Shown here: positions 1-8,752 of the stretch, piece by piece
Layout of the letters: every line of letters starts with the position of its first letter
Position numbering within the stretch: position 1 is the stretch's first letter
IMG/VR virus record: IMGVR_UViG_2698536647_000003
Span: 1 to 8,752 of that record
From: a virus
Lineage: Duplodnaviria > Heunggongvirae > Uroviricota > Caudoviricetes
Reading direction: 5' to 3' (one strand)
Length of the DNA stretch: 8,752 bases
Notes under the pieces: model-generated
Seen by the model: the letters and a program-made list of their open reading frames with translations, nothing else
Database searches by the model: none
What the model was told of the DNA's origin: nothing
Position numbers and translations under genes: made by a program

Positions 1-804
1 CTGCGCCCACGGCACTGATGATTTTGGTGTTTGAGGGTCAGTGGTTGTTAGAAAACGGCTGAATACCGCATTACCGTAAGTAATCCACAGCTGCGCAATT
101 CGATGCCCGGTGTAGGAACTCTGAAACCCACAGCCATACGAAGGAGCCCACAGAGTATTGCCATCAGCATCACTGATGAAGGATGAACTGGCATCTGTGG
201 GCTTATTTTGGAGAACAGCACCAACCCCAAAAGCTCCCACCTGCATAACATTCCCTGCCGCAGTTCCGACATCCTTTGTCGCACTACTTCCTAAACCGAG
301 GTTTGTGCGAACGTCTGCTGCGTTCGTTGCCCCGGTCCCGCCCTGCGCAATAGAAAGCGCAGTAGTGAGTCCTTTCAGCTCCGTGATATCGCTGTTTGCC
401 CCCTTTCTGGCAAGTGCACCAATGCCCGGAATATTCACGGAAGCTCCGTTGATGGTAACGGTGATAGTTTGGTTTGCTGAGGTGGTGGCGAACGTCTCCC
501 ATGCGCCGATATTCTCGTCATACTCTTTGATGAGCTGAGACATGGCCTGCGCCAGGCCGTCGACTGAGATATTGTCTGACACAAGGATTCCATACTTCTG
601 GCCGCTCAGCGCCGGGGAAGCAACTGGCGTAACCGTCAAAGACGTGGCGCTGTTCACGGATGAAATCTGGAACAGCTGCACCGGGTTAGACATCACGATA
701 ATTGTCTGCCCAGCGCGAACCTGGCTGGCGGGAGCTGTCCAGTTTGTGCCGGAGCCGGTTGCGGTATTTCCGTTAATAGAGATAGTTCCTGTGCTATAAA
801 TCAT
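1..804 (-). CDS. Tail fibre protein, N-terminal 268 codons (partial; 3' end lies beyond the window start)
   Basis: Hand translation of the minus strand from ATG 804..802 is open for 268 codons to position 1 (MIYSTGTISINGNTATGSGTNW...), which explains why this frame is absent from the ATG-to-stop ORF track. TAGGAG sits 5 nt upstream of the ATG (811..816 on the minus strand). The translation contains LSIAQGGTGATNAADVRTNLGLG, a motif I recognise as recurrent in phage tail fibres. Position is immediately distal to J. Confidence 0.7.
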   Translation of the reverse strand, partial: MIYSTGTISINGNTATGSGTNWTAPASQVRAGQTIIVMSNPVQLFQISSVNSATSLTVTPVASPALSGQKYGILVSDNISVDGLAQAMSQLIKEYDENIGAWETFATTSANQTITVTINGASVNIPGIGALARKGANSDITELKGLTTALSIAQGGTGATNAADVRTNLGLGSSATKDVGTAAGNVMQVGAFGVGAVLQNKPTDASSSFISDADGNTLWAPSYGCGFQSSYTGHRIAQLWITYGNAVFSRFLTTTDPQTPKSSVPWAQ

Positions 805-881
805 AACAACTCCTAAATTTAGACAACATGAAGCCCGGAGAGGTATATAACCCTCACCAGAAATAATTTCTGAATTGGTTT

Positions 882-1228
882 TTAATACATGTTGGGCAAC
901 GCCAGTGTTGGCATAGCTATAGTTGTATCAAATGCCATTGACCACCCACCCAAATAATAATTGCCGACTACTTTATTCCTTTCTGCTCTGACATTCCCAC
1001 CTGTCATTACAATTCCTTTATACCTAATATTTCCGTAACCACCAACGTGTCGACAGTTAGCCCCGGTATAAACAATCTGGCAAAATTCATCACCAATATT
1101 CAGGTTCGCATTGGCGATATTTATTGTCCCATCAAAAATGAATGGCTTCGTGCAAGTAAGAAGACGTTTGCGTTGACGATTGGTTTATTCAATCCATCAA
1201 CCAAAATACCATGTAAACGAATTGCCAT
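882..1228 (-). pseudogene. Possible frameshifted remnant of a side-tail-fibre (Stf-like) N-terminus
   Basis: Minus-strand ATG at 1228 gives MAIRLHGILVDGLNKPIVNANVFLLARSHSFLMGQ then a stop at 1121..1123. Its first ~27 residues resemble the lambda Stf N-terminus as I recall it (MAVKISGVLKDGTGKPVQNCTIQLKARR). A second frame is open from 1130 to 882 (82 codons). AT-rich, no convincing intact gene. Confidence 0.25.
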
Positions 1229-1309
1229 AACATTTCCCACTTTATTTTACTTACTCAACACAACAAGTATATTAAAATTGAACCTTGTCAACAACACAAA
1301 GGAGTCCCA

Positions 1310-1543
1310 ATGAAACTCGCTCTAATTATGCTGCCATTATGTCTGTCCCTCACTGCATGTGGTAATGGTTTAAATACCGGTAAACCAAATTCCGGTGTCA
1401 TTCCAAAACCTTTGGATCGAGATGGTAACGGTTCTTTAATTTATGATACCGAAAACCTTCCAATGACGGGGCAGTGGTGTCACGAGATTGATCACGAATA
1501 CCGACGAATCGGTAGCCCTTCTAACTGTGTTATTGACTACTAA
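1310..1543 (+). CDS. Small predicted outer-membrane lipoprotein (77 aa), moron convergent with J
   Basis: ORF-track ORF with AAGGAG at 1299..1304, 5 nt before the ATG. N-terminus MKLALIMLPLCLSLTAC has a charged n-region, hydrophobic core and lipobox L-T-A-C (Gly at +2). AT-rich relative to flanking tail genes. A perfect hairpin terminator begins 2 nt after the stop. Confidence 0.6.
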   Translation: MKLALIMLPLCLSLTACGNGLNTGKPNSGVIPKPLDRDGNGSLIYDTENLPMTGQWCHEIDHEYRRIGSPSNCVIDY

Positions 1544-1544
1544 A

Positions 1545-1572
1545 TATTAACCCCTCAAAAGAGGGGTTAATA
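1545..1572. terminator. Bidirectional intrinsic terminator between the convergent lipoprotein gene and J
   Basis: Perfect 12-bp inverted repeat TATTAACCCCTC / GAGGGGTTAATA with a 4-nt AAAA loop. It is followed by TTTT (1573..1576) on the plus strand and flanked by A/T on the minus strand. It lies between the plus-strand stop (1541..1543) and the J stop (1575..1577). Confidence 0.65.
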
Positions 1573-1574
1573 TT

Positions 1575-4500
1575 TTAACCTGTGAATGAACCAGATCCGT
1601 GTGATACTATGACAGTAGGCGAATAAATGGACGCGCCCCTGTTATTTTGAGCGGACACTTTAATACGCACTGTTACGTTTGGACCTGTTACAACCGCAGA
1701 ATGCATGATAAGTCTCTCCATGTCTTGTACGGATGAACCACTCTCATTGCCGTTAATATTGATTAGTCCTGCACCATTACCTTTAACGTTTGCTATAACA
1801 CAGACGTGTCTTGCGTGCCCAGAACTGGATGAATCCGTATAAGTTATTACCTTTTCTAAAAGGCCGTCACTAGACCGACTAACGTCAGTTCCGGTGTGCA
1901 TATTTGCAATGTCCCCGATAAAACTTTGGGCTTCCACAGTCCCTTTGAATTTACCGCTTGTTGCTTGTATCTCACCAGTAAATCTACCGCCACTAGCATA
2001 TACTACACCTCTGACGGTCACATTGTTGAATTCAGCATCTCCAGCTTTATTCAACTTCCAACCAGCAGAACCAGCTGCATAGTTGTTGGACTGGATATAG
2101 TTACCGATTTTTGCGTTCTCAATGGTGCCGTCCTGGATGAAGCTGGCCCGGATGAATGTCTGTCCATTCTGGATCACAAACGGCAAAGCCACGCTATTTC
2201 CGGCTGCCGTGGTGACGGCGAAGCGATCAGCCAGGAAGATAACCTGCGACTGCATGCCGGATGGCGTATTCTCCACGCCGATACCCATCCCCGCGGCGTA
2301 ATACTGCCCGTTGCTGGAGACACCAACTTTGATGTTGTACATCGCGCTGAGGTCGCCGTTTACGTTCGCTATAGCCTGAGCGTTGGTTGTGATGGCTGAG
2401 GTATGCCCGTTCACCGTCGCCGTGATGCTGTTTACCTGCGTGGCCATAGCCTGCTGGTAATCGGAGAACGTCTGGTTCAGGCTGTTGATGGATGCCTTGT
2501 TGCCGTTAACGTCCGTCTGCAGGCTCAGCAGCGAGCGCGCCGTTGCCTCCCTGTCGTTGACAATCACCTCATCAATACGGTCCAGATTCGCGCTGTTGCC
2601 GGCGACCGATGCAGAAAGGGTTTTACGCGTGGCCACCTGAGCGAGGTTGGCCTGGATTATCGCAATTGCAGAGTTCTTCACCCCGCCCGTCATGCCGTCC
2701 ATAGAAACGCTGATGTTGTCGATTCGCTGGCCCAGGGCGGTATCAGCCGTCGCAACGGTCTGCTCAAGCTGACTGAGTGAAGACGAAACATTCCCGACCG
2801 TGCTGGAAAGCTCATTAACGCTGGTCTGAACCTTCCCTACGTCCTGGGCATTTTTGGCGATATCTTTCGCTTGCTGCTCCAGTTCGTCGTTAGCCTGTTT
2901 GATATCGTTAGCCATGCCAGCAATTTTTTCATTGCTGTCCACAGCGTTCTCGATCAGGTCTTTGAACGTATCGGAGCCTTTCATGTCCTCCAGGATCACA
3001 TCTGTGATGTCGGAAACATCGATGCTGGCCTGTCCTCGCACCCATTCTGTGTACCCTGATTCGTTGCCGCTGCGGTCCACCAGCTGAGCGCGGTACCAGA
3101 AAATCTGCCCAGCCTTGAGGCCCATCTGCTGATATTTGCGCTGCGGATAAGGCACATCGGCCAGCAGCATCGCATCGTCCTCGGTTCCGGTCAGGCTGTA
3201 CTGAATTTCCGTCTTCAGCGTGTCGTCGGTATTCGCCGGGAATCCCCAGTTCAGCTCGATGCCGAAAACCACATTTTCAGAAGCGATGAAGCCAACCGGC
3301 TTCGGTGGATTGCCCACTTTACCCGTCAGCGTTTTCTCTTCTGAATAGCCCCATCCGGATGAAATTTCAGCGGCGTTGATGGCACGCACGCGCACCAGGT
3401 ATCGTCCCGCATAAATGCCCGGAACATCGAACGATGTGGTGGAGCTGCGCGGCACGTTAACCCAGTTCCCGTCGTTGCGGCGCCATTGTGCTTCATAGGC
3501 GATAGCGTTCTGCGCCTGGTACCAGCTCACGCGCATTGTTTCGACGCTGATATTTTGCTGAACCACGGAAAACGAGCTGATCACGATATTCGCAGGCGGC
3601 GACTGGTTGCCCGGCGGGATCACGCTCACCGGCCGTTGGTCAATGATGGCTCCGGTATCGATACGGGCATATTTATCCGGGTCGTGCCATGCGCCGGTAA
3701 TCGAGAAAGTGCCATCATTGTTATCGGAAACGCTGACAACTCGATACTGCTGCGCGTAGAGCTCGTCAGATTCAACCACCCAAACAGCTTCGGCCTGTGG
3801 CGTCTCACTGTATGCCGTGGTGACTGTGACTGATTCCCCGTTCACGGCCTGAATGGTCCTGCTCTGCGACGCTCCGGAGGGAAGGTTGAGAATAAGGCGA
3901 TCACCTGGTGCTGCATCAGCTACGCGGTCAAGTTTGATAACGCGACCGTTAACGGCGCTGATGCGGCCGCCCATAACCTTTCCGGAAAGCAGCTCGTCTG
4001 CCACGGCGATGATGTAGCCAGGCTGCGGAATGTTTCCGTCCAGCCCGACATCAAACGAAACAACGCGATCCTTGTTGTTGGTGAGAATGCCCCAGCGCCC
4101 CTTTCGGTTCGCTTCTGACTGCCTGGTGCAGCCGATGGCTGTCATTTCCAGCTGATTGAAGCCGTATCGCGCTACCAGCGCCTGCTCAAATACCGGCTCC
4201 ATCGCGTCGGCATAAGCGTTACCCGGGTCTGACCATGAAACCAGCGCTGTGGTGTAGCGGGTTTTCGTGGTGCTGCTTGAATAGGTGAAGCGACCGCCAA
4301 CAACGTTGGCGCGCGTGTAGCTGTAATCAACATCTCGGGGCATATCGGCCAGAGCAACGATCTGATCGCCTCCCCAGTACGTCATGCCACGGAATATGGC
4401 CGCAAAATCACGCAGGACTGTATAAGCGTCGTTTCGGTCCTGGATGTACACGTTGCAGGTATAACGCGGTTCGGTACCGTTGCCCCCTTTGCCGTCTGGT

Positions 4501-5465
4501 ACCATCTGATCACAATACTGGGCAACCTGATAAAGCGTCCATTTATCAATATTCGCAGCGGTCAAACGGTGCCCGAGGCCGAACCGGTCAGAAACAACCA
4601 GATCGTAAAAAATCCACGCAGGGTTATCCGTCCATGCCCACTTAAACGCACCGGTCCATGTACCGCTATAAGTGCGGGTTTCAGGGTCGTAGGTATCTGG
4701 AACGCGGATAACACGGCCGCGGGGCTCGCAGGAGATCTGCGGGATAGAGCCGTTAAACTGACTTGAATCGAATTCGATGTAGAGTAGCGCTGTGTTTGGA
4801 TATCGTAACTTGGCGTCAATCACCTCGGTGAAGCTCTGCAGCGTCATCGTGTCGCCGATCTTCGCGCTGTTGGCATCAGAGGTAATCTTACGCAGACGTA
4901 TTGTCCAGGTGCTGCCAGCTTGCGGTAAATCGATACGGTGGCTGCGCTCATAACCAGACGTCGTTTTGCCGGTCACGCTGGTATTGAGTACCGTCTGCCA
5001 TGTGCCGCCGTCCGTCTGCAGGTCAATCGCATAATTGACCGAGTAACCCACCAGATCTCCGTCGTCTTCCTGTTTGAAAAGCGAGGGCCATTTCAGACGC
5101 AGACGAACTGCTGAAAGCTGCGTATTGGTAAACGTGCGCGTCCAGGCTGTAGCGCTTGATACCTCAGTTCCCACGCTGATTTCGTTTTCGGTACCGGGAA
5201 TACCCTGAATATATTTTTGAGCCTGCGTCCCCGCGCGAAACTCCCACGTCACGCCGCTGAAGTTTTGGGAACCGTCGGCATTCTCCAGCGCCGTTCCGTC
5301 CAGGTAGATATCTTTGCCGGTTAGCTGCCCTGCGAACTCCCCTTCGCCAAGCGCAACGAGGATTTTTGCCTTCGCTACAGATTGCAGATCATCAGGCTGT
5401 TCGGTAGGAGTTCGTGAACTGGATTTGCCGCCTTTGCGCCCCTTTAATACTTTCTCTGTAGCCAT
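1575..5465 (-). CDS. J: Host specificity protein J (central tail fibre / tail tip), 1296 aa
   Basis: Single 3891-nt ORF. The N-terminal region (KGGKSSSRTPTEQPDDLQS...) and the segment YYAAGMGIGVENTPSGMQSQVIFLADRFAV... resemble lambda gpJ as I recall it. It sits after M-L-K-I in lambda order. Start ATG 5465 has only a weak GGA-type Shine-Dalgarno. Confidence 0.93.
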   Translation of the reverse strand: MATEKVLKGRKGGKSSSRTPTEQPDDLQSVAKAKILVALGEGEFAGQLTGKDIYLDGTALENADGSQNFSGVTWEFRAGTQAQKYIQGIPGTENEISVGTEVSSATAWTRTFTNTQLSAVRLRLKWPSLFKQEDDGDLVGYSVNYAIDLQTDGGTWQTVLNTSVTGKTTSGYERSHRIDLPQAGSTWTIRLRKITSDANSAKIGDTMTLQSFTEVIDAKLRYPNTALLYIEFDSSQFNGSIPQISCEPRGRVIRVPDTYDPETRTYSGTWTGAFKWAWTDNPAWIFYDLVVSDRFGLGHRLTAANIDKWTLYQVAQYCDQMVPDGKGGNGTEPRYTCNVYIQDRNDAYTVLRDFAAIFRGMTYWGGDQIVALADMPRDVDYSYTRANVVGGRFTYSSSTTKTRYTTALVSWSDPGNAYADAMEPVFEQALVARYGFNQLEMTAIGCTRQSEANRKGRWGILTNNKDRVVSFDVGLDGNIPQPGYIIAVADELLSGKVMGGRISAVNGRVIKLDRVADAAPGDRLILNLPSGASQSRTIQAVNGESVTVTTAYSETPQAEAVWVVESDELYAQQYRVVSVSDNNDGTFSITGAWHDPDKYARIDTGAIIDQRPVSVIPPGNQSPPANIVISSFSVVQQNISVETMRVSWYQAQNAIAYEAQWRRNDGNWVNVPRSSTTSFDVPGIYAGRYLVRVRAINAAEISSGWGYSEEKTLTGKVGNPPKPVGFIASENVVFGIELNWGFPANTDDTLKTEIQYSLTGTEDDAMLLADVPYPQRKYQQMGLKAGQIFWYRAQLVDRSGNESGYTEWVRGQASIDVSDITDVILEDMKGSDTFKDLIENAVDSNEKIAGMANDIKQANDELEQQAKDIAKNAQDVGKVQTSVNELSSTVGNVSSSLSQLEQTVATADTALGQRIDNISVSMDGMTGGVKNSAIAIIQANLAQVATRKTLSASVAGNSANLDRIDEVIVNDREATARSLLSLQTDVNGNKASINSLNQTFSDYQQAMATQVNSITATVNGHTSAITTNAQAIANVNGDLSAMYNIKVGVSSNGQYYAAGMGIGVENTPSGMQSQVIFLADRFAVTTAAGNSVALPFVIQNGQTFIRASFIQDGTIENAKIGNYIQSNNYAAGSAGWKLNKAGDAEFNNVTVRGVVYASGGRFTGEIQATSGKFKGTVEAQSFIGDIANMHTGTDVSRSSDGLLEKVITYTDSSSSGHARHVCVIANVKGNGAGLININGNESGSSVQDMERLIMHSAVVTGPNVTVRIKVSAQNNRGASIYSPTVIVSHGSGSFTG

Positions 5466-5476
5466 ATCGCGTCCAT

Positions 5477-5499
5477 AAAAAAAGCCACCCGAAGGCGGC
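5477..5499 (-). terminator. Intrinsic terminator on the minus strand, ending 11 nt upstream of the J start codon
   Basis: Minus-strand RNA reads GCCGCC-UUCG-GGUGGC (6-bp stem with one G.U, UUCG tetraloop) followed by seven U (plus 5477..5483 is A7). Confidence 0.6.
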
Positions 5500-5631
5500 T
5501 ACTGTTTAAATATCAGGCTGTTGGTAACAGGAATCCCTGGTTAATGTGTAAGCTCAGCCCGCCAGTGGTAGGCCTCTGGCGTTAACTGACCGAGGGATGG
5601 CTGAAGTACCCGGTTAAAATGGAGTAATAAG

Positions 5632-5847
5632 ATGATCGAAGAAAAGTTCGTGGATTTTAGATTTACTCTTGACGAAAATATTCCTAGAGAAATCGCTTTA
5701 GAAATTGTGGCTCTAAGACAAGTTACAATGGTATTAACAGCAGCATTGCCAGTAGATACAAGGCAACAAGTTATTGAAATCCTATCAAAGACAAACTCAC
5801 CACAAATTCAAGACATCGTCAAAAATATGAAGCTTATTGACGCCTAA
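5632..5847 (+). CDS. Hypothetical 71-aa protein in the I-J insertion (plus strand)
   Basis: ORF-track ORF with GGAG at 5621..5624, 7 nt before the ATG. AT-rich. Its 3' end overlaps the 3' end of the minus-strand 49-aa ORF by about 50 nt, so at most one of the two may be real. No recognisable motif. Confidence 0.35.
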   Translation: MIEEKFVDFRFTLDENIPREIALEIVALRQVTMVLTAALPVDTRQQVIEILSKTNSPQIQDIVKNMKLIDA

Positions 5848-5946
5848 TGTCATTGAAGCATCGTACTCTACGGTCTCATGCGGGACCGTTTCATTAACTT
5901 CAGATGTTTCATTTTCAGTTTTTTCTACTCGTGACTCAAAAGACAT
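5797..5946 (-). CDS. Hypothetical small acidic protein (49 aa) immediately downstream of I
   Basis: Hand translation: MSFESRVEKTENETSEVNETVPHETVEYDASMTLGVNKLHIFDDVLNLW (11 Asp/Glu against 3 Arg/Lys). AAGGAG at 5958..5953 sits 6 nt before ATG 5946 and 8 nt after the I stop. Below the ORF track's apparent length cut-off. Confidence 0.35.
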   Translation of the reverse strand: MSFESRVEKTENETSEVNETVPHETVEYDASMTLGVNKLHIFDDVLNLW

Positions 5947-5966
5947 ACACATCTCCTTAACTTAGC

Positions 5967-6554
5967 TTACTGCTGATCTTCGACATATATCCCGGCAGAA
6001 ATAATCGCTCCGCCGATTCGACGCTTACCATAAAGCAGAGGCACTGGGTAGCCTTGCGCTGCAGTGTTGGTTACCCCGCCAAACGCATACGATGCACGGT
6101 TATCTGCGCTTTGTTTGCTGGCCAGCCCTGTAGCCTGAGGGGATAACATCTGAACTACCCCCCCCAGCGTTATGGACGCACCAGCAGCAAACATCATATT
6201 GCTGGCAGCTATACTCAGACCTGGCATCCAGATCGATGCAATCACTAATACTGCGCCCAGGATAGTTTGAATCAAACCGGCTTTTTTACTCCCGATGATT
6301 ACCGGAACAATGCGAATAACCTCGCCGGTAATCGGGAAGCCAAGGTCATCCACACCGATGTTTTTTTTACCCTTAAACACGGAGTATGTGAGCCCACGGC
6401 GTTGGCTGGAAATCATAAACTGCTCAAATCCAGGAATGGTTTTTGCGAGTGCAACGCCTGCTTCGCTTACGCGGGATATCAGACGGTAGTGAACTTTGCC
6501 AAACGTTTTTCCAAGAACACTGCCTAATTCAATTCGACTCATGACCTCTTGCAT
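5967..6554 (-). CDS. I: Tail assembly protein I (ubiquitin-like N-terminal domain, hydrophobic C-terminal region)
   Basis: Resembles lambda gpI as I recall it (e.g. ...GYPVPLLYG... near the C-terminus, Gly/Ala-rich hydrophobic stretch). I trimmed the ORF-track start (6641) to ATG 6554, which follows a GGGGGGA run by 4 nt and lies downstream of the 6570..6591 terminator. An in-frame ATG at 6542 is an alternative. Confidence 0.85.
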   Translation of the reverse strand: MQEVMSRIELGSVLGKTFGKVHYRLISRVSEAGVALAKTIPGFEQFMISSQRRGLTYSVFKGKKNIGVDDLGFPITGEVIRIVPVIIGSKKAGLIQTILGAVLVIASIWMPGLSIAASNMMFAAGASITLGGVVQMLSPQATGLASKQSADNRASYAFGGVTNTAAQGYPVPLLYGKRRIGGAIISAGIYVEDQQ

Positions 6555-6569
6555 ATAATCCCCCCACGT

Positions 6570-6591
6570 AAAAAAACCGCCGAAGCGGTTT
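6570..6591 (-). terminator. Intrinsic terminator on the minus strand after the K-I lipoprotein gene
   Basis: Minus-strand RNA reads AAACCGC-UUCG-GCGGUUU followed by a U-run (plus 6570..6576 is A7). Lies between the lipoprotein stop (6616) and the I start (6554). Confidence 0.65.
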
Positions 6592-6615
6592 AATTTGGTT
6601 GATTTATTTAGGTGT

Positions 6616-7011
6616 TTATTTATTAAAATGTTTCTTTTCAATGCTCATTGCTTGATTAAAGAAATTTGTAGCATTAATTACCGCCCTTTCACAATCCTTC
6701 TGCCCATAATGTCGATGGCATTGGAATTCAGCATTTATTGCCGTATCGCCGGACTGTTTAACCTTAGATGCCCGTCCTGCAAGTTGCCTTGTATCAATAG
6801 GTGGGAATGTTGTTATAAATGTATCGTTAGCTGATTCTACTCTCATTTTTGTTGCAAACTCCAAATGCTGAGGAACCTTCGACCAAAGATAACTACATTC
6901 AGCCTCTGATGAACATGTGACAGGCTTAGTATCTAATACCGGCATTGGCCTATTATCAGCACATCCAGCGGTGGCAAGTACCACAAGACCAGAGAACAAT
7001 ATTTTTTTCAC
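6616..7011 (-). CDS. Cys-rich predicted outer-membrane lipoprotein (131 aa), moron between K and I
   Basis: ORF-track ORF starting at GTG 7011..7009 (no in-frame ATG nearby), with GGGAAG 7 nt upstream. N-terminus MKKILFSGLVVLATAGC fits a lipoprotein signal with Cys+1 and Ala at +2. The mature part has 4 further Cys. AT-rich; own terminator downstream. No homolog recognised. Confidence 0.6.
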   Translation of the reverse strand: MKKILFSGLVVLATAGCADNRPMPVLDTKPVTCSSEAECSYLWSKVPQHLEFATKMRVESANDTFITTFPPIDTRQLAGRASKVKQSGDTAINAEFQCHRHYGQKDCERAVINATNFFNQAMSIEKKHFNK

Positions 7012-7098
7012 AATTAAGCTTCCCTTTCATTGAAAATATCAGAGGAATACTAACATGAAGTTATGGAGTGAGTAATTAACAACTTAACCACTATAGAA

Positions 7099-7809
7099 TT
7101 AACAAAATACTTTGTACCGAAGTACTTTCATTGTTCTTTCCTGCCAGTAGCCACCATATGGCACGCGCTGGCTAAGATGACCGTACAAATGATGCAGTAG
7201 CATATTGCCCTCAAGCAGGATCCCCGCGTGATTCCACTTATCGGCCTGGACCTGCATGATGATGAGGTCCCCTTCCTGAGGCGGGCCATCAAACTCCCTG
7301 AATCCGCACTCGTACCAGCACTCCTGATAGAAATTGTCCGGGTAGTCGTTTTCCCACCAGGGATAATCCACCCGGTAATCGTGGAGCTCGATACCGTGGG
7401 TCTGCCGGAAATAGCTCATTACCAGACCCCAGCAATCGAAGTGGCCAAGCACGAACGGACGCTCCAGCAATGGCAGCTCCCCGCGTGGCTGAATGGTACG
7501 TAAATCCCCCTCTGGCCAGCTCACAATATGCCAGGGCAGCAGCGTTGCATCACACTGTGCCTTATCCAGCTCGCTGGCCTGCGTCGTCGCATCAGGATGG
7601 CTGTGAACAATGGCCACCACCGTCCCCCAGTCTTCTGCCGCTGCGTAATCTTCGGGGGACAGGTGAAAATGTTCAGTCGGCTCTGCTGCGAGATTACGAC
7701 AGGGAAAATAGCGCTCAACCCGGCTTTTCTGTGCCACCACGCCGCAGCACTCGCGCGGATATTCCGCTGCAGCGTGTGCCATGATGGCATCAATGGTTTT
7801 CTGGCGCAT
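7099..7809 (-). CDS. K: Tail assembly / tail tip protein K (JAMM/MPN metalloprotease-like N-domain plus NlpC/P60-like C-domain)
   Basis: JAMM motif visible: E in PRECCGVV, then HSHPDATTQASELD, which fits H-x-H-x7-S-x2-D. NlpC/P60-like Cys in GHFDCWGLV and His in WNHAGILL. Start set at ATG 7809 (protein MRQKTIDAIM...) with AGGAG 5 nt upstream; the L stop TGA (7813..7811) is 1 nt before it. The ORF-track start at 7845 is probably an upstream non-ATG artefact. Confidence 0.9.
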   Translation of the reverse strand: MRQKTIDAIMAHAAAEYPRECCGVVAQKSRVERYFPCRNLAAEPTEHFHLSPEDYAAAEDWGTVVAIVHSHPDATTQASELDKAQCDATLLPWHIVSWPEGDLRTIQPRGELPLLERPFVLGHFDCWGLVMSYFRQTHGIELHDYRVDYPWWENDYPDNFYQECWYECGFREFDGPPQEGDLIIMQVQADKWNHAGILLEGNMLLHHLYGHLSQRVPYGGYWQERTMKVLRYKVFC

Positions 7810-7810
7810 A

Positions 7811-8566
7811 TCAACTCCTGATAAGAGATGTACCGGGGAAACCACCGAACGGCAGCTCGTTGCTGTATCCGTGCCGGAGCTTGCAGGCCGTCAGCGTGCC
7901 GTTGCATACATCCAGCGAGGGATCGTCAACCGGATTATTGTTTTTGTCGAAATAGCGCGTTCCGGCATAGTCGCAGCCGTCGCCGGTACGATATTTATTC
8001 CGGATGCACCAGGTACACAGGGAATGAAGCTGTCGCGTCGGGATCATTTGCCCCTGCAGGTCCATCGGGCTGGATAGTGTGAACTCAACAACTTCATTGG
8101 TTTCACTGCTCTTTGCATCGATGTAGAAAACCTTCAGCTTCTCCTGGGTCGGATCGGCTGTCGGATTGCCTCCGGTGAAGTTTCTCGCATCAAGATACTT
8201 ACCAAGGGTGTCATGTATCGTCACCTTCGCCTGCAGCATATCGTCGTAAGCCAGGCAAAGCGCGGTGATCGAACTGTCGAGGTTAGCAACCGAAAGTTTT
8301 GGCTGGGCACTACTTCCCGAGGTTGAAGCTTCGATCCCATCAATCTGGCATGGCCACGCTTTATACTCCTCACCCTGCCACCAGATAGATTTTGCTGGCA
8401 GTTTATTTTCATCACCGCCAGCAGCCTCAATCTCTTCCGGGGTATGCGCGATGTTATGTGCGTGGAAGCGGAGTACATCTGACATACCGAACGCTGTGCC
8501 ATCGACAGAAAAAAGCCGGACTTCATTGCCCGGCTCGAGTTTTTGATAATCAGCATTAAGACTCAT
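7811..8566 (-). CDS. L: Tail tip protein L (251 aa)
   Basis: Position between M and K. C-terminal Cys cluster (LCTWCIRNKYRTGDGCDYAG ... CNGTLTACKLRHG) resembles the conserved Cys pattern of lambda gpL as I recall it. The ATG at 8566..8564 overlaps the M stop in an ATGA arrangement. Confidence 0.9.
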   Translation of the reverse strand: MSLNADYQKLEPGNEVRLFSVDGTAFGMSDVLRFHAHNIAHTPEEIEAAGGDENKLPAKSIWWQGEEYKAWPCQIDGIEASTSGSSAQPKLSVANLDSSITALCLAYDDMLQAKVTIHDTLGKYLDARNFTGGNPTADPTQEKLKVFYIDAKSSETNEVVEFTLSSPMDLQGQMIPTRQLHSLCTWCIRNKYRTGDGCDYAGTRYFDKNNNPVDDPSLDVCNGTLTACKLRHGYSNELPFGGFPGTSLIRS

Positions 8567-8752
8567 GGTGCAAATGCCTGTTCAAACGTTGCGGTTACGG
8601 TTATCACTTTTACGTTTTTAACCACCTTTTTGAGCGTGTCAGCCTCGACACGCCACAGCGCGGTATCGCCGAAAGGCGGTGTGAAAATAAACGACTTCAC
8701 TTTATGCCGCCGAAGGAAAGCGTGAATTTCATTCGCTGTAGTCGGATCCCCT
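8563..8752 (-). CDS. M: Tail tip protein M, C-terminal 62 codons (partial; 5' end lies beyond the window end)
   Basis: Hand translation of the minus strand from 8751 gives ...GDPTTANEIHAFLRRHKVKSFIFTPPFGDTALWRVEADTLKKVVKNVKVITVTATFEQAFAP then a stop at 8565..8563. This resembles the C-terminal half of lambda gpM as I recall it (...WKSFLWTPPYEW...). The stop overlaps the L start. Confidence 0.8.
   Translation of the reverse strand, partial: GDPTTANEIHAFLRRHKVKSFIFTPPFGDTALWRVEADTLKKVVKNVKVITVTATFEQAFAP

Follow-up and report, generated by a model that had tools for sequence, protein, structure and literature searches.

The question raised by this locus is whether a 71-aa ORF, which an earlier note made from the letters alone had placed on the plus strand antisense to a late operon, is a genuine gene with a transcription unit of its own, and whether it could be expressed in the lysogen. 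The window, i.e., the whole stretch of 8,752 nucleotides that was analyzed (positions 1 to 8,752 of IMG/VR record IMGVR_UViG_2698536647_000003), covers the tail tip of a lambdoid, HK97-like prophage of E. coli and is written opposite to late transcription. Over positions 5440-6000 it matches three complete E. coli chromosomes at 99.6-99.8% identity and phage mEp506 at 98.2%. The ORF is indeed present at 5632..5847, with L, K, I and J all on the minus strand; the well-spaced GGAG was located at 5621-5624, 7 nt ahead of the ATG, and the same ORF is annotated in RefSeq and in phage mEp506. The genes and the insert are arranged as follows:

8566..7811, minus strand, tail gene L (ORF listing)
7845..7099, minus strand, tail gene K (ORF listing)
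6641..5967, minus strand, tail gene I (ORF listing)
5465..1575, minus strand, tail gene J, 1296 aa (ORF listing)
5466..5966, no strand assigned, moron block that separates the I stop codon from the J start codon, 501 bp, AT-rich
5632..5847, plus strand, 71-aa reverse moron cargo gene with ATG start, product identical to RefSeq WP_053263845.1, 'hypothetical protein'
5621..5624, plus strand, Shine-Dalgarno (SD) sequence GGAG, 7-nt spacer to the ATG (5632-5634), read from the sequence

The I-J gap comprises 501 bp in the window, where lambda has 60 bp and N15 has 51 bp. It has a GC content of 35-41% between flanks of 50-57%, and contains two convergent small ORFs together with control elements. 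Morons were defined by Juhala et al. 2000 (quoted in PMC3594210) as extra DNA of different GC content with its own promoter and terminator. Since the gap holds a surplus of about 450 bp, it represents 'more DNA' and thus a moron in the original sense (PMC3594210): additional DNA lies between genes that are adjacent in related phages, and its base composition deviates from that of its surroundings.

Ahead of the ATG, the 165 bp at 5466-5631 are conserved non-coding DNA, which forms a conserved and portable cassette. Its identity amounts to 74-96% across 23 phage records, including HK97, HK022, ES18, Oslo, SPN3UB, HK633 and mEp213/043, with the window copy being 89-95% identical to that of HK97 and 84% to that of HK022. 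Using a consensus query, the cassette was found in 224 of 5426 complete E. coli genomes (~4%), and an IMG/VR pattern scan detected it in at least 119 viral contigs, resulting in 89 unique copies. In every one of these 89 a start codon follows 85-102 nt 3' of the CCTGGTTA box, and the ORFs behind them, 62-154 aa in length, belong to 16 unrelated families, among which the 71-aa family is the second commonest cargo (21 of 89 copies). Cassettes are located at I/J, M/L and TMP/M as well as after the lysis genes. A second copy was found in the same prophage 15 kb away (L258 2001-2392, E. coli 1008S13; leader 93 bits), between the lysis genes and HNH/terminase, where it precedes an 81-aa ORF that is unrelated and has a separate convergent partner. 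Moreover, two copies reached independently via the protein, one in Serratia (56 bits) and one in Yersinia (39 bits), retain the hairpin P2 described below with a different sequence. Prophages of E. coli, Salmonella, Serratia, Yersinia and Kosakonia carry the cassette, a taxonomic range that rests on protein matches and four fetched loci. The 120 loci listed by a 15-base pattern scan of genome contigs were all chance matches, and none of them matched the covariance model. Among the E. coli records listed, no annotated feature lies beneath the cassette match, and the sole annotation touching it in 24 phage records is 'terminator'. In one contig (L048, IMGVR_UViG_2808606654_000010) an IS3-family transposase gene (MPMSGKRYPEEFKTEAVKQ...) stands behind the leader instead of a cargo ORF. 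Two further loci, L021 and L063, retain CCTGGTTAnnnT and the leader RNA next to different upstream DNA, which has neither the terminator nor the ATATCAGG motif, and the conserved unit may therefore begin near CCTGG. The elements of the cassette and of the region downstream of the 71-aa gene are:

5483..5500, minus strand, intrinsic terminator at the left end of the cassette, 7-bp stem with 5 GC pairs and a T7 tail
5521..5547, plus strand, promoter-like region with TTGGTA (5521-5526), a 15-nt spacer and a -10-like TAATGT (5542-5547)
5548..5630, plus strand, conserved structured 5' leader with a ~78-nt fold, based on covariance model, RNAalifold and covariation
5554-5559 with 5599-5604, helix P1, TCAGCC with GGCTGA, enclosing P2
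5560-5581, plus strand, hairpin P2
~5592-5596 with ~5609-5611, P3, a possible helix or pseudoknot of GAGGG with CCC
5870..5889, plus strand, hairpin and likely terminator of the plus transcript, 8-bp stem, 22 nt past the stop codon
5797..5952, minus strand, convergent small ORF of 51 aa (ORF listing), annotated in mEp506

The leader is a structure of the plus-strand RNA, in which P2 is followed by a linker, GGCTGA, an ACCUC-like segment, the SD sequence and the ATG. A covariance model built from the leaders (R1) scored the window copy with 60.7 bits (E=7e-16) and found no second copy in the window. P1 (UCAGC/GCUGA) around P2 was predicted independently by RNAalifold from 87 leaders. P2 is paired in 98% and 4-5 of its 8 pairs covary, for instance one occurring as UG (49), CG (19) and UA (19) and another as UA (65), CG (17) and UG (6); none of 500 shuffles attained its covariation score, and in a control in which the P2 partners were slid by 1-3 columns pairing reached just 27-53%. 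Read as plus-strand RNA, P2 pairs in 98.2% versus 88.5% as minus-strand RNA, owing to its many G-U pairs. In Serratia, Yersinia, L021 and L042 the P2 position holds a hairpin of other sequence. P1 is invariant, and covariation consequently neither supports nor contradicts it. P3 (GGAGG/CCUC(YG)) is paired in 81% with 3 of 6 pairs covarying and would be pseudoknotted with P1. Folded alone, the window leader is no more stable than shuffled sequences (z -0.93), and Rfam 15 gave 0 matches with E<=1 on both strands of the whole window. As a covarying 5' UTR of ~80 nt before the RBS, with an SD-like GGAGG and an anti-SD-like CCUC, the leader resembles the cis-regulatory leaders collected in Rfam; unlike those, it precedes many unrelated genes and not one gene family. 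Selection for a plus-strand fold just before the RBS is the strongest indirect evidence that this strand is transcribed from within the cassette.

Two simple modes of action of the leader were discarded. Consistent sequestration of the SD sequence was rejected because its pairing probability with the ACCC/ACCUC segment, 0.72 in the window, has a median of 0.5 in the family, with heterogeneous partners. A uORF starting from the AUG inside the invariant leader motif GGGAUGGCUGA (equivalent to ~5597-5599) is not general, as HK97-type leaders have no AUG at this site, which renders a leader peptide unlikely. This AUG is used by some gene calls (P0009, P0011), and calls of this type carry spurious N-terminal extensions of the form MAD(N/Y)L...

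Investigating the DNA upstream of the leader, we observed a fixed order of motifs in the cassette, with ATATCAGG (5510-5517) and TGTT invariant, followed by ~13 variable nt, CCTGG, TAATGT, a 6-nt spacer and TCAGCC. CCTGG (5536-5540) is invariant in all cassette copies and lies within the 15-nt spacer, just 5' of TAATGT. In the -10-like hexamer, all of 14 elements collected by BLAST, the divergent Kosakonia one among them, have the T, the A and the last T, and the protein-found Yersinia copy has TATTGT in the same TAnnnT-N6-TCAGCC layout. This spacing fits a -10 box with a start at the 5' arm of P1, the transcript start being predicted at ~5553-5556. The -35 region is poor (TTGGTA, 15-nt spacer) and the -10 box has 3 of 6 consensus matches. 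In line with this, the statement of the earlier note that it saw no convincing sigma-70 promoter was borne out by a consensus scan of the plus strand, which found none, and the best score of a position-weight scan on this strand was 6.3 versus a background mean of 6.0. With regard to the 'own promoter' of morons, the observation is thus a TAnnnT box 6 nt 5' of the leader with a consensus score no better than background, and from the conservation of this layout we infer promoter activity of the cassette. CCTGG is also a Dcm methylation site. Farther 5', CTG-N9-CAG (5502-5516) and CAGG (5514-5517) resemble protein-binding sites. A LexA box has the form CTG-N10-CAG, and this identity was rejected for the upstream motif, the spacing of which is one base too short.

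Both ends of the unit carry terminator-like hairpins. The one at 5483-5500 (dG -12.3, z -3.0) lies immediately 5' of the J ribosome-binding site, one of its stem pairs covaries between GC (49) and AU (36), and a 'terminator, putative' is annotated at the equivalent site in HK97 and ES18. The hairpin at 5870-5889 has a dG of -12.0 and a z of -3.3, with none of 200 shuffles being equally stable; its U tail is weak (TTCATT) and the terminator scan did not call it. Relatives have a similar hairpin at the same place (e.g., GCGGCC...GGCCGC), in several cases followed by a T run; the Kosakonia counterpart is a clean terminator, and those of HK97 and ES18 are annotated. Consequently, the block has an own terminator in the sense of the moron definition, with a weak U tail in the window and a canonical form in Kosakonia, HK97 and ES18.

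Together, the TAnnnT box, the structured plus-strand leader and the downstream hairpin are the hallmarks of a separate transcription unit, and the autonomous opposite-strand unit that the earlier note had proposed is well supported as far as sequence comparison can tell. The reading we favor, and consider likely, is that 5632..5847 is a genuine reverse moron, independently transcribed via a cassette with a folded leader. According to this reading, a small accessory gene would have entered an HK97-like prophage between I and J within an AT-rich block of ~450 bp. Its transcription would run against the late operon from the cassette promoter, with the -10-like TAATGT at 5542-5547 and a start near 5554, giving an mRNA of ~340 nt that begins with the ~78-nt leader (P1 around P2, possibly with the P3 pseudoknot), is translated from GGAG-N7-ATG and ends at the hairpin 5870-5889. 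On the other strand, the terminator 5483-5500 would halt late-strand transcripts without Q antitermination before J, so that the block would be insulated in the lysogen and read through in lytic growth. We further infer that the 71-aa gene is expressed in the lysogen.

This last step is where the strongest competing explanation departs, which accepts gene and cassette as real and makes the promoter dependent on an activator or on the phage cycle, with expression on infection or induction and not constitutively in the lysogen. Such a dependence would account for the poor -35 region with its 15-nt spacer, for the invariant CTG-N9-CAG and CAGG...CCTGG 5' of the -10 box that resemble protein sites, and for the presence of two cassette copies in one prophage, which could be co-regulated. 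Nevertheless, we regard it as rather unlikely, considering that it comes without a named regulator, that a late-strand terminator pointing at the cassette would be most readily understood for a block that works without Q, and that morons in general are described as being expressed from the repressed prophage (PMC3594210).

The reverse moron is accompanied by the convergent ORF 5797..5952, which probably starts at its second ATG (5946) and then encodes 49 aa; an AGGAG is situated 6 nt 5' of this ATG, and the ORF begins 14-20 nt past the I stop codon. The hairpin 5870-5889 sits within this ORF (5952/5946..5797), meaning that the same DNA segment would act as the plus-strand terminator and also code for part of the minus-strand ORF product. 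A convergent minus-strand ORF abuts the cargo stop codon in 90 of 91 related loci. The N-terminus encoded in the window resembles the MTLEQRVE of Kosakonia and SPN3UB, and BLASTP of the window ORF against the Kosakonia partner ORF gave no significant match. We thus treat 5797..5952 as a candidate coding ORF, which may belong to the late operon as a forward moron. The convergent ORFs of related loci often start with M-(T/S)-(L/F)-E-x-R-V-E, and the hairpin segment encodes AARQKTA or AARKQAA in Kosakonia and SPN3UB and TVPHETV in the window.

This arrangement might suggest that the two convergent ORFs (71 aa on the plus strand, 49/51 aa on the minus strand) form a two-gene module, e.g., of a toxin-antitoxin-like or mutually antisense-regulated type, as the minus ORF abuts or overlaps the cargo stop in nearly all of these loci and has the plus-strand terminator hairpin embedded in it. 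We consider such a module improbable: the partners are heterogeneous, those of the window and Kosakonia having no BLASTP similarity at a cargo identity of 63%, no toxin, antitoxin or defense profile matched, and the minus ORF might be nothing more than a forward moron that belongs to the late operon.

Whether the protein itself is what selection maintains was addressed by comparison of homologs. The exact 71-aa protein is present on 302 contigs, and Kosakonia relatives share ~63-65% identity with it. Its homologs comprise 8 close clusters and 61 profile-level clusters, all annotated as 'hypothetical protein', with no Pfam domain among the 61; together they stem from Escherichia, Kosakonia, Enterobacter, Salmonella, Klebsiella, Serratia, Yersinia, Atlantibacter and Pseudescherichia. 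In an exhaustive search relatives reached down to 35% identity, and the homolog searches limited the family to Enterobacterales prophages. Protein-found homologs are likewise oriented within tail operons (I/J in Kosakonia and Serratia, M/L in Yersinia), with a gap of ~165-175 nt 5' of the gene and a small convergent ORF 3' of it. Between the window and the Kosakonia gene, pN is 0.24 and pS 0.82, with 21, 11 and 46 differences at codon positions 1, 2 and 3, respectively. Summed over eleven close family pairs the corresponding differences are 88, 31 and 183, and dN/dS ranges from 0.03 to 0.13. The five alternative frames of the 216 bp contain 4-7 stops each, and the ORF listing contains no minus-strand ORF of at least 40 aa covering 5466..5796. 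At 35% GC about 7% of random codons are stops, and by this arithmetic a 71-codon open frame has a probability of ~0.005 per start. Overall, 5632..5847 is a real protein-coding gene under purifying selection. The earlier note had named conservation of the minus-strand ORF alone as an outcome that would speak against it; the conserved ORF turned out to be the one on the plus strand.

These results also bear on the idea that the main product is an antisense RNA, which would pair with the late mRNA over the 51-aa ORF and the I-J junction and thereby modulate late expression or exclude related phages, with coding being secondary. The transcript would be fully complementary to the late mRNA, including a 51-bp overlap with the convergent ORF, and there is a precedent in STnc6030 of the BTP1 prophage, an RNA opposite structural genes that gives superinfection exclusion (PMC7067206). 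However, the protein frame is under strong purifying selection, the protein family persists at 17-30% identity, where nucleotide differences are saturated, and the leader is common to sixteen unrelated cargos, so that what is conserved with the cassette cannot be the sequence of the cargo; we consequently judge this explanation to be very improbable. A chance open frame in a non-coding spacer, which the shortness of the ORF and its missing domain match and consensus promoter could have suggested, is refuted by the conserved family, a dN/dS well below 1, the third-position excess and the five closed frames, and retains next to no credibility.

Concerning the nature of the protein, an AF2 model from 11 sequences (pLDDT 80.8) shows helices at residues 19-37, 41-52 and 57-66, residues 1-18 without secondary structure and residues 1-4 with a pLDDT below 50; the N-terminus, MIEEKFVDFRF, is charged. 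The product is thus predicted to be a small soluble three-helix protein, and E24, A27, Q30 and R44 are invariant in its close relatives. It matches phrog_6806 (function unassigned) with E=1.6e-6, hhalign of its family gave P=96.5% and E=8e-10 for SPN3UB gp33 and P=62.7% and E=7e-5 for HK022 gp23, and one BLASTP-linked cluster of 23 cargos takes in HK022 gp23. With this similarity extending over most of its length, the protein belongs to the family of HK022 gp23, SPN3UB gp33 and phrog_6806, in which HK022 gp23 is a distant relative, 20% identical to the 71-aa subfamily in the family alignment. The family extends to an identity of 17-30%, a range in which nucleotide differences are saturated.

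The earlier note had recognized no motif in the protein, and searches of Pfam, NCBIfam and PADLOC agree in giving no match, with weak Pfam hits to WNK CCTL2 and RPN13_C far under the cutoffs. The profile and structure searches it had asked for yielded the 61 homolog clusters and phrog_6806, and they returned no functional clue. Defense profiles (PADLOC) did not match the 71-aa protein, the 51-aa protein or seven other cargos, and in Foldseek searches of the AF2 model against PDB and BFVD every match had an E above 1. Several identities were tried and discarded. The only strong PDB profile match, to the repetitive coiled-coil neck of DC-SIGNR, was taken as compositional because no single stretch passed. 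The label DUF2594, used in mEp506, is not supported for the window protein, which has no PF10769 match: the best relative scored 14 bits versus a cutoff of 24, hhalign of the family against YecF gave P=10.7%, and no DUF2594 protein is among the 61 profile matches. The likeness to E. coli YecF/DUF2594 consists of a comparable size (74 aa) and a first-helix motif, ELANEVSCLK versus EIALEIVALR. HK97 gp23 was rejected as a homolog, since it has no sequence similarity to the 71-aa protein. Likewise, signal peptide, lipobox and cysteine are all missing from the 71-aa protein, which is therefore not a Bor/Cor-type lipoprotein. By analogy with other morons, our best guess is that it acts in the cytoplasm via binding another protein, in lysogenic conversion or inter-phage competition.

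Genes of the same slot are known from HK97 and HK022, the labels of which stem from the annotation of Juhala et al. 2000 (AF069529, AF069308). HK97 has gp22, 'moron product', on the late strand and gp23, 'reverse moron product', on the opposite strand, together with annotated terminators; in HK022 the pair consists of gp22 and gp23, the latter labeled 'srb protein; moron gene product'. For the meaning of 'srb' in HK022 we found no explanation in the literature. Both gp23 genes share with the 71-aa gene the I-J slot, the opposite strand, a convergent small forward ORF, flanking terminators and the cassette. In terms of sequence, HK97 gp23 (86 aa) differs in that it shares only the cassette with the 71-aa gene. 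A further moron of this phage, HK97 gp15, mediates superinfection exclusion (PMC3594210) and is comparable in that it, too, is a short accessory gene placed within a tail operon of this phage group and fits the general moron definition.

The comparison with lambda bor drawn by the earlier note holds for the orientation and fails for the protein. Like bor, the 71-aa gene is small, belongs to a lambdoid prophage and runs against late transcription. The bor gene lies near the lysis genes, is expressed in the lysogen and encodes an outer-membrane lipoprotein; the 71-aa product, in contrast, is predicted to be soluble, helical and cysteine-free. The Bor/Cor-like gene of the window is another one, namely the 77-aa ORF at 1310..1543 on the plus strand, which is located just 3' of J on the opposite strand, has a lipoprotein signal (MKLALIMLPLCLSLTAC), matches phrog_12984 'lipoprotein' (E=1e-56) and is 95-96% identical to lipoproteins of Seurat/CAjan-type phages; its product may be a receptor-blocking exclusion protein. 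In addition, a 131-aa ORF at 6616..7011 on the minus strand, between K and I, has a GC content of 27-46% and a lipobox-like N-terminus (MKKILFSGLVVLATAGC), matches phrog_16082 (function unassigned) and has the appearance of a second moron, in forward orientation. There is an overlap with the longest possible I ORF; the RefSeq version of I comprises 591 nt, and the real I start is probably farther downstream than that of the longest ORF.

As an accessory gene, the 71-aa ORF adds one more member to the reverse morons described in HK97 and HK022, which have been known as a class since 2000. More novel, and worth follow-up, are the leader and the shared control cassette. No examined record annotates the cassette. 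In the literature on 'reverse moron', HK022 srb, HK97 gp23 and ES18 morons we found neither a description of the cassette, of which an earlier mention in Juhala et al. 2000 or the ES18 paper is possible, nor an account of the leader RNA structure or of the breadth of the cassette. Tentatively, and with less than even confidence, we propose that the ~165-bp cassette, consisting of the terminator, the TAnnnT promoter and the ~78-nt pseudoknotted leader, is a portable, previously undescribed module for expressing reverse morons. If this is true, the leader would count as a cis-regulatory RNA of a new class, and many unrelated accessory genes, sometimes two per prophage, would be under one signal or factor. 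The leader could act by switching its CCUC segment between P3 and the ribosome-binding site, or alternatively via a host or phage protein bound at the invariant GGA-containing loops. In addition, leader and terminator hairpin would serve as recombination anchors, between which cargos are swapped like cassettes.

In conclusion, a working promoter with a regulatory leader would provide a sequence handle for prophage accessory genes on the 'wrong' strand of late operons, which are often unannotated or have wrong start codons. It would also offer a single testable explanation for the expression, and perhaps the co-regulation, of many unrelated morons in lysogens.
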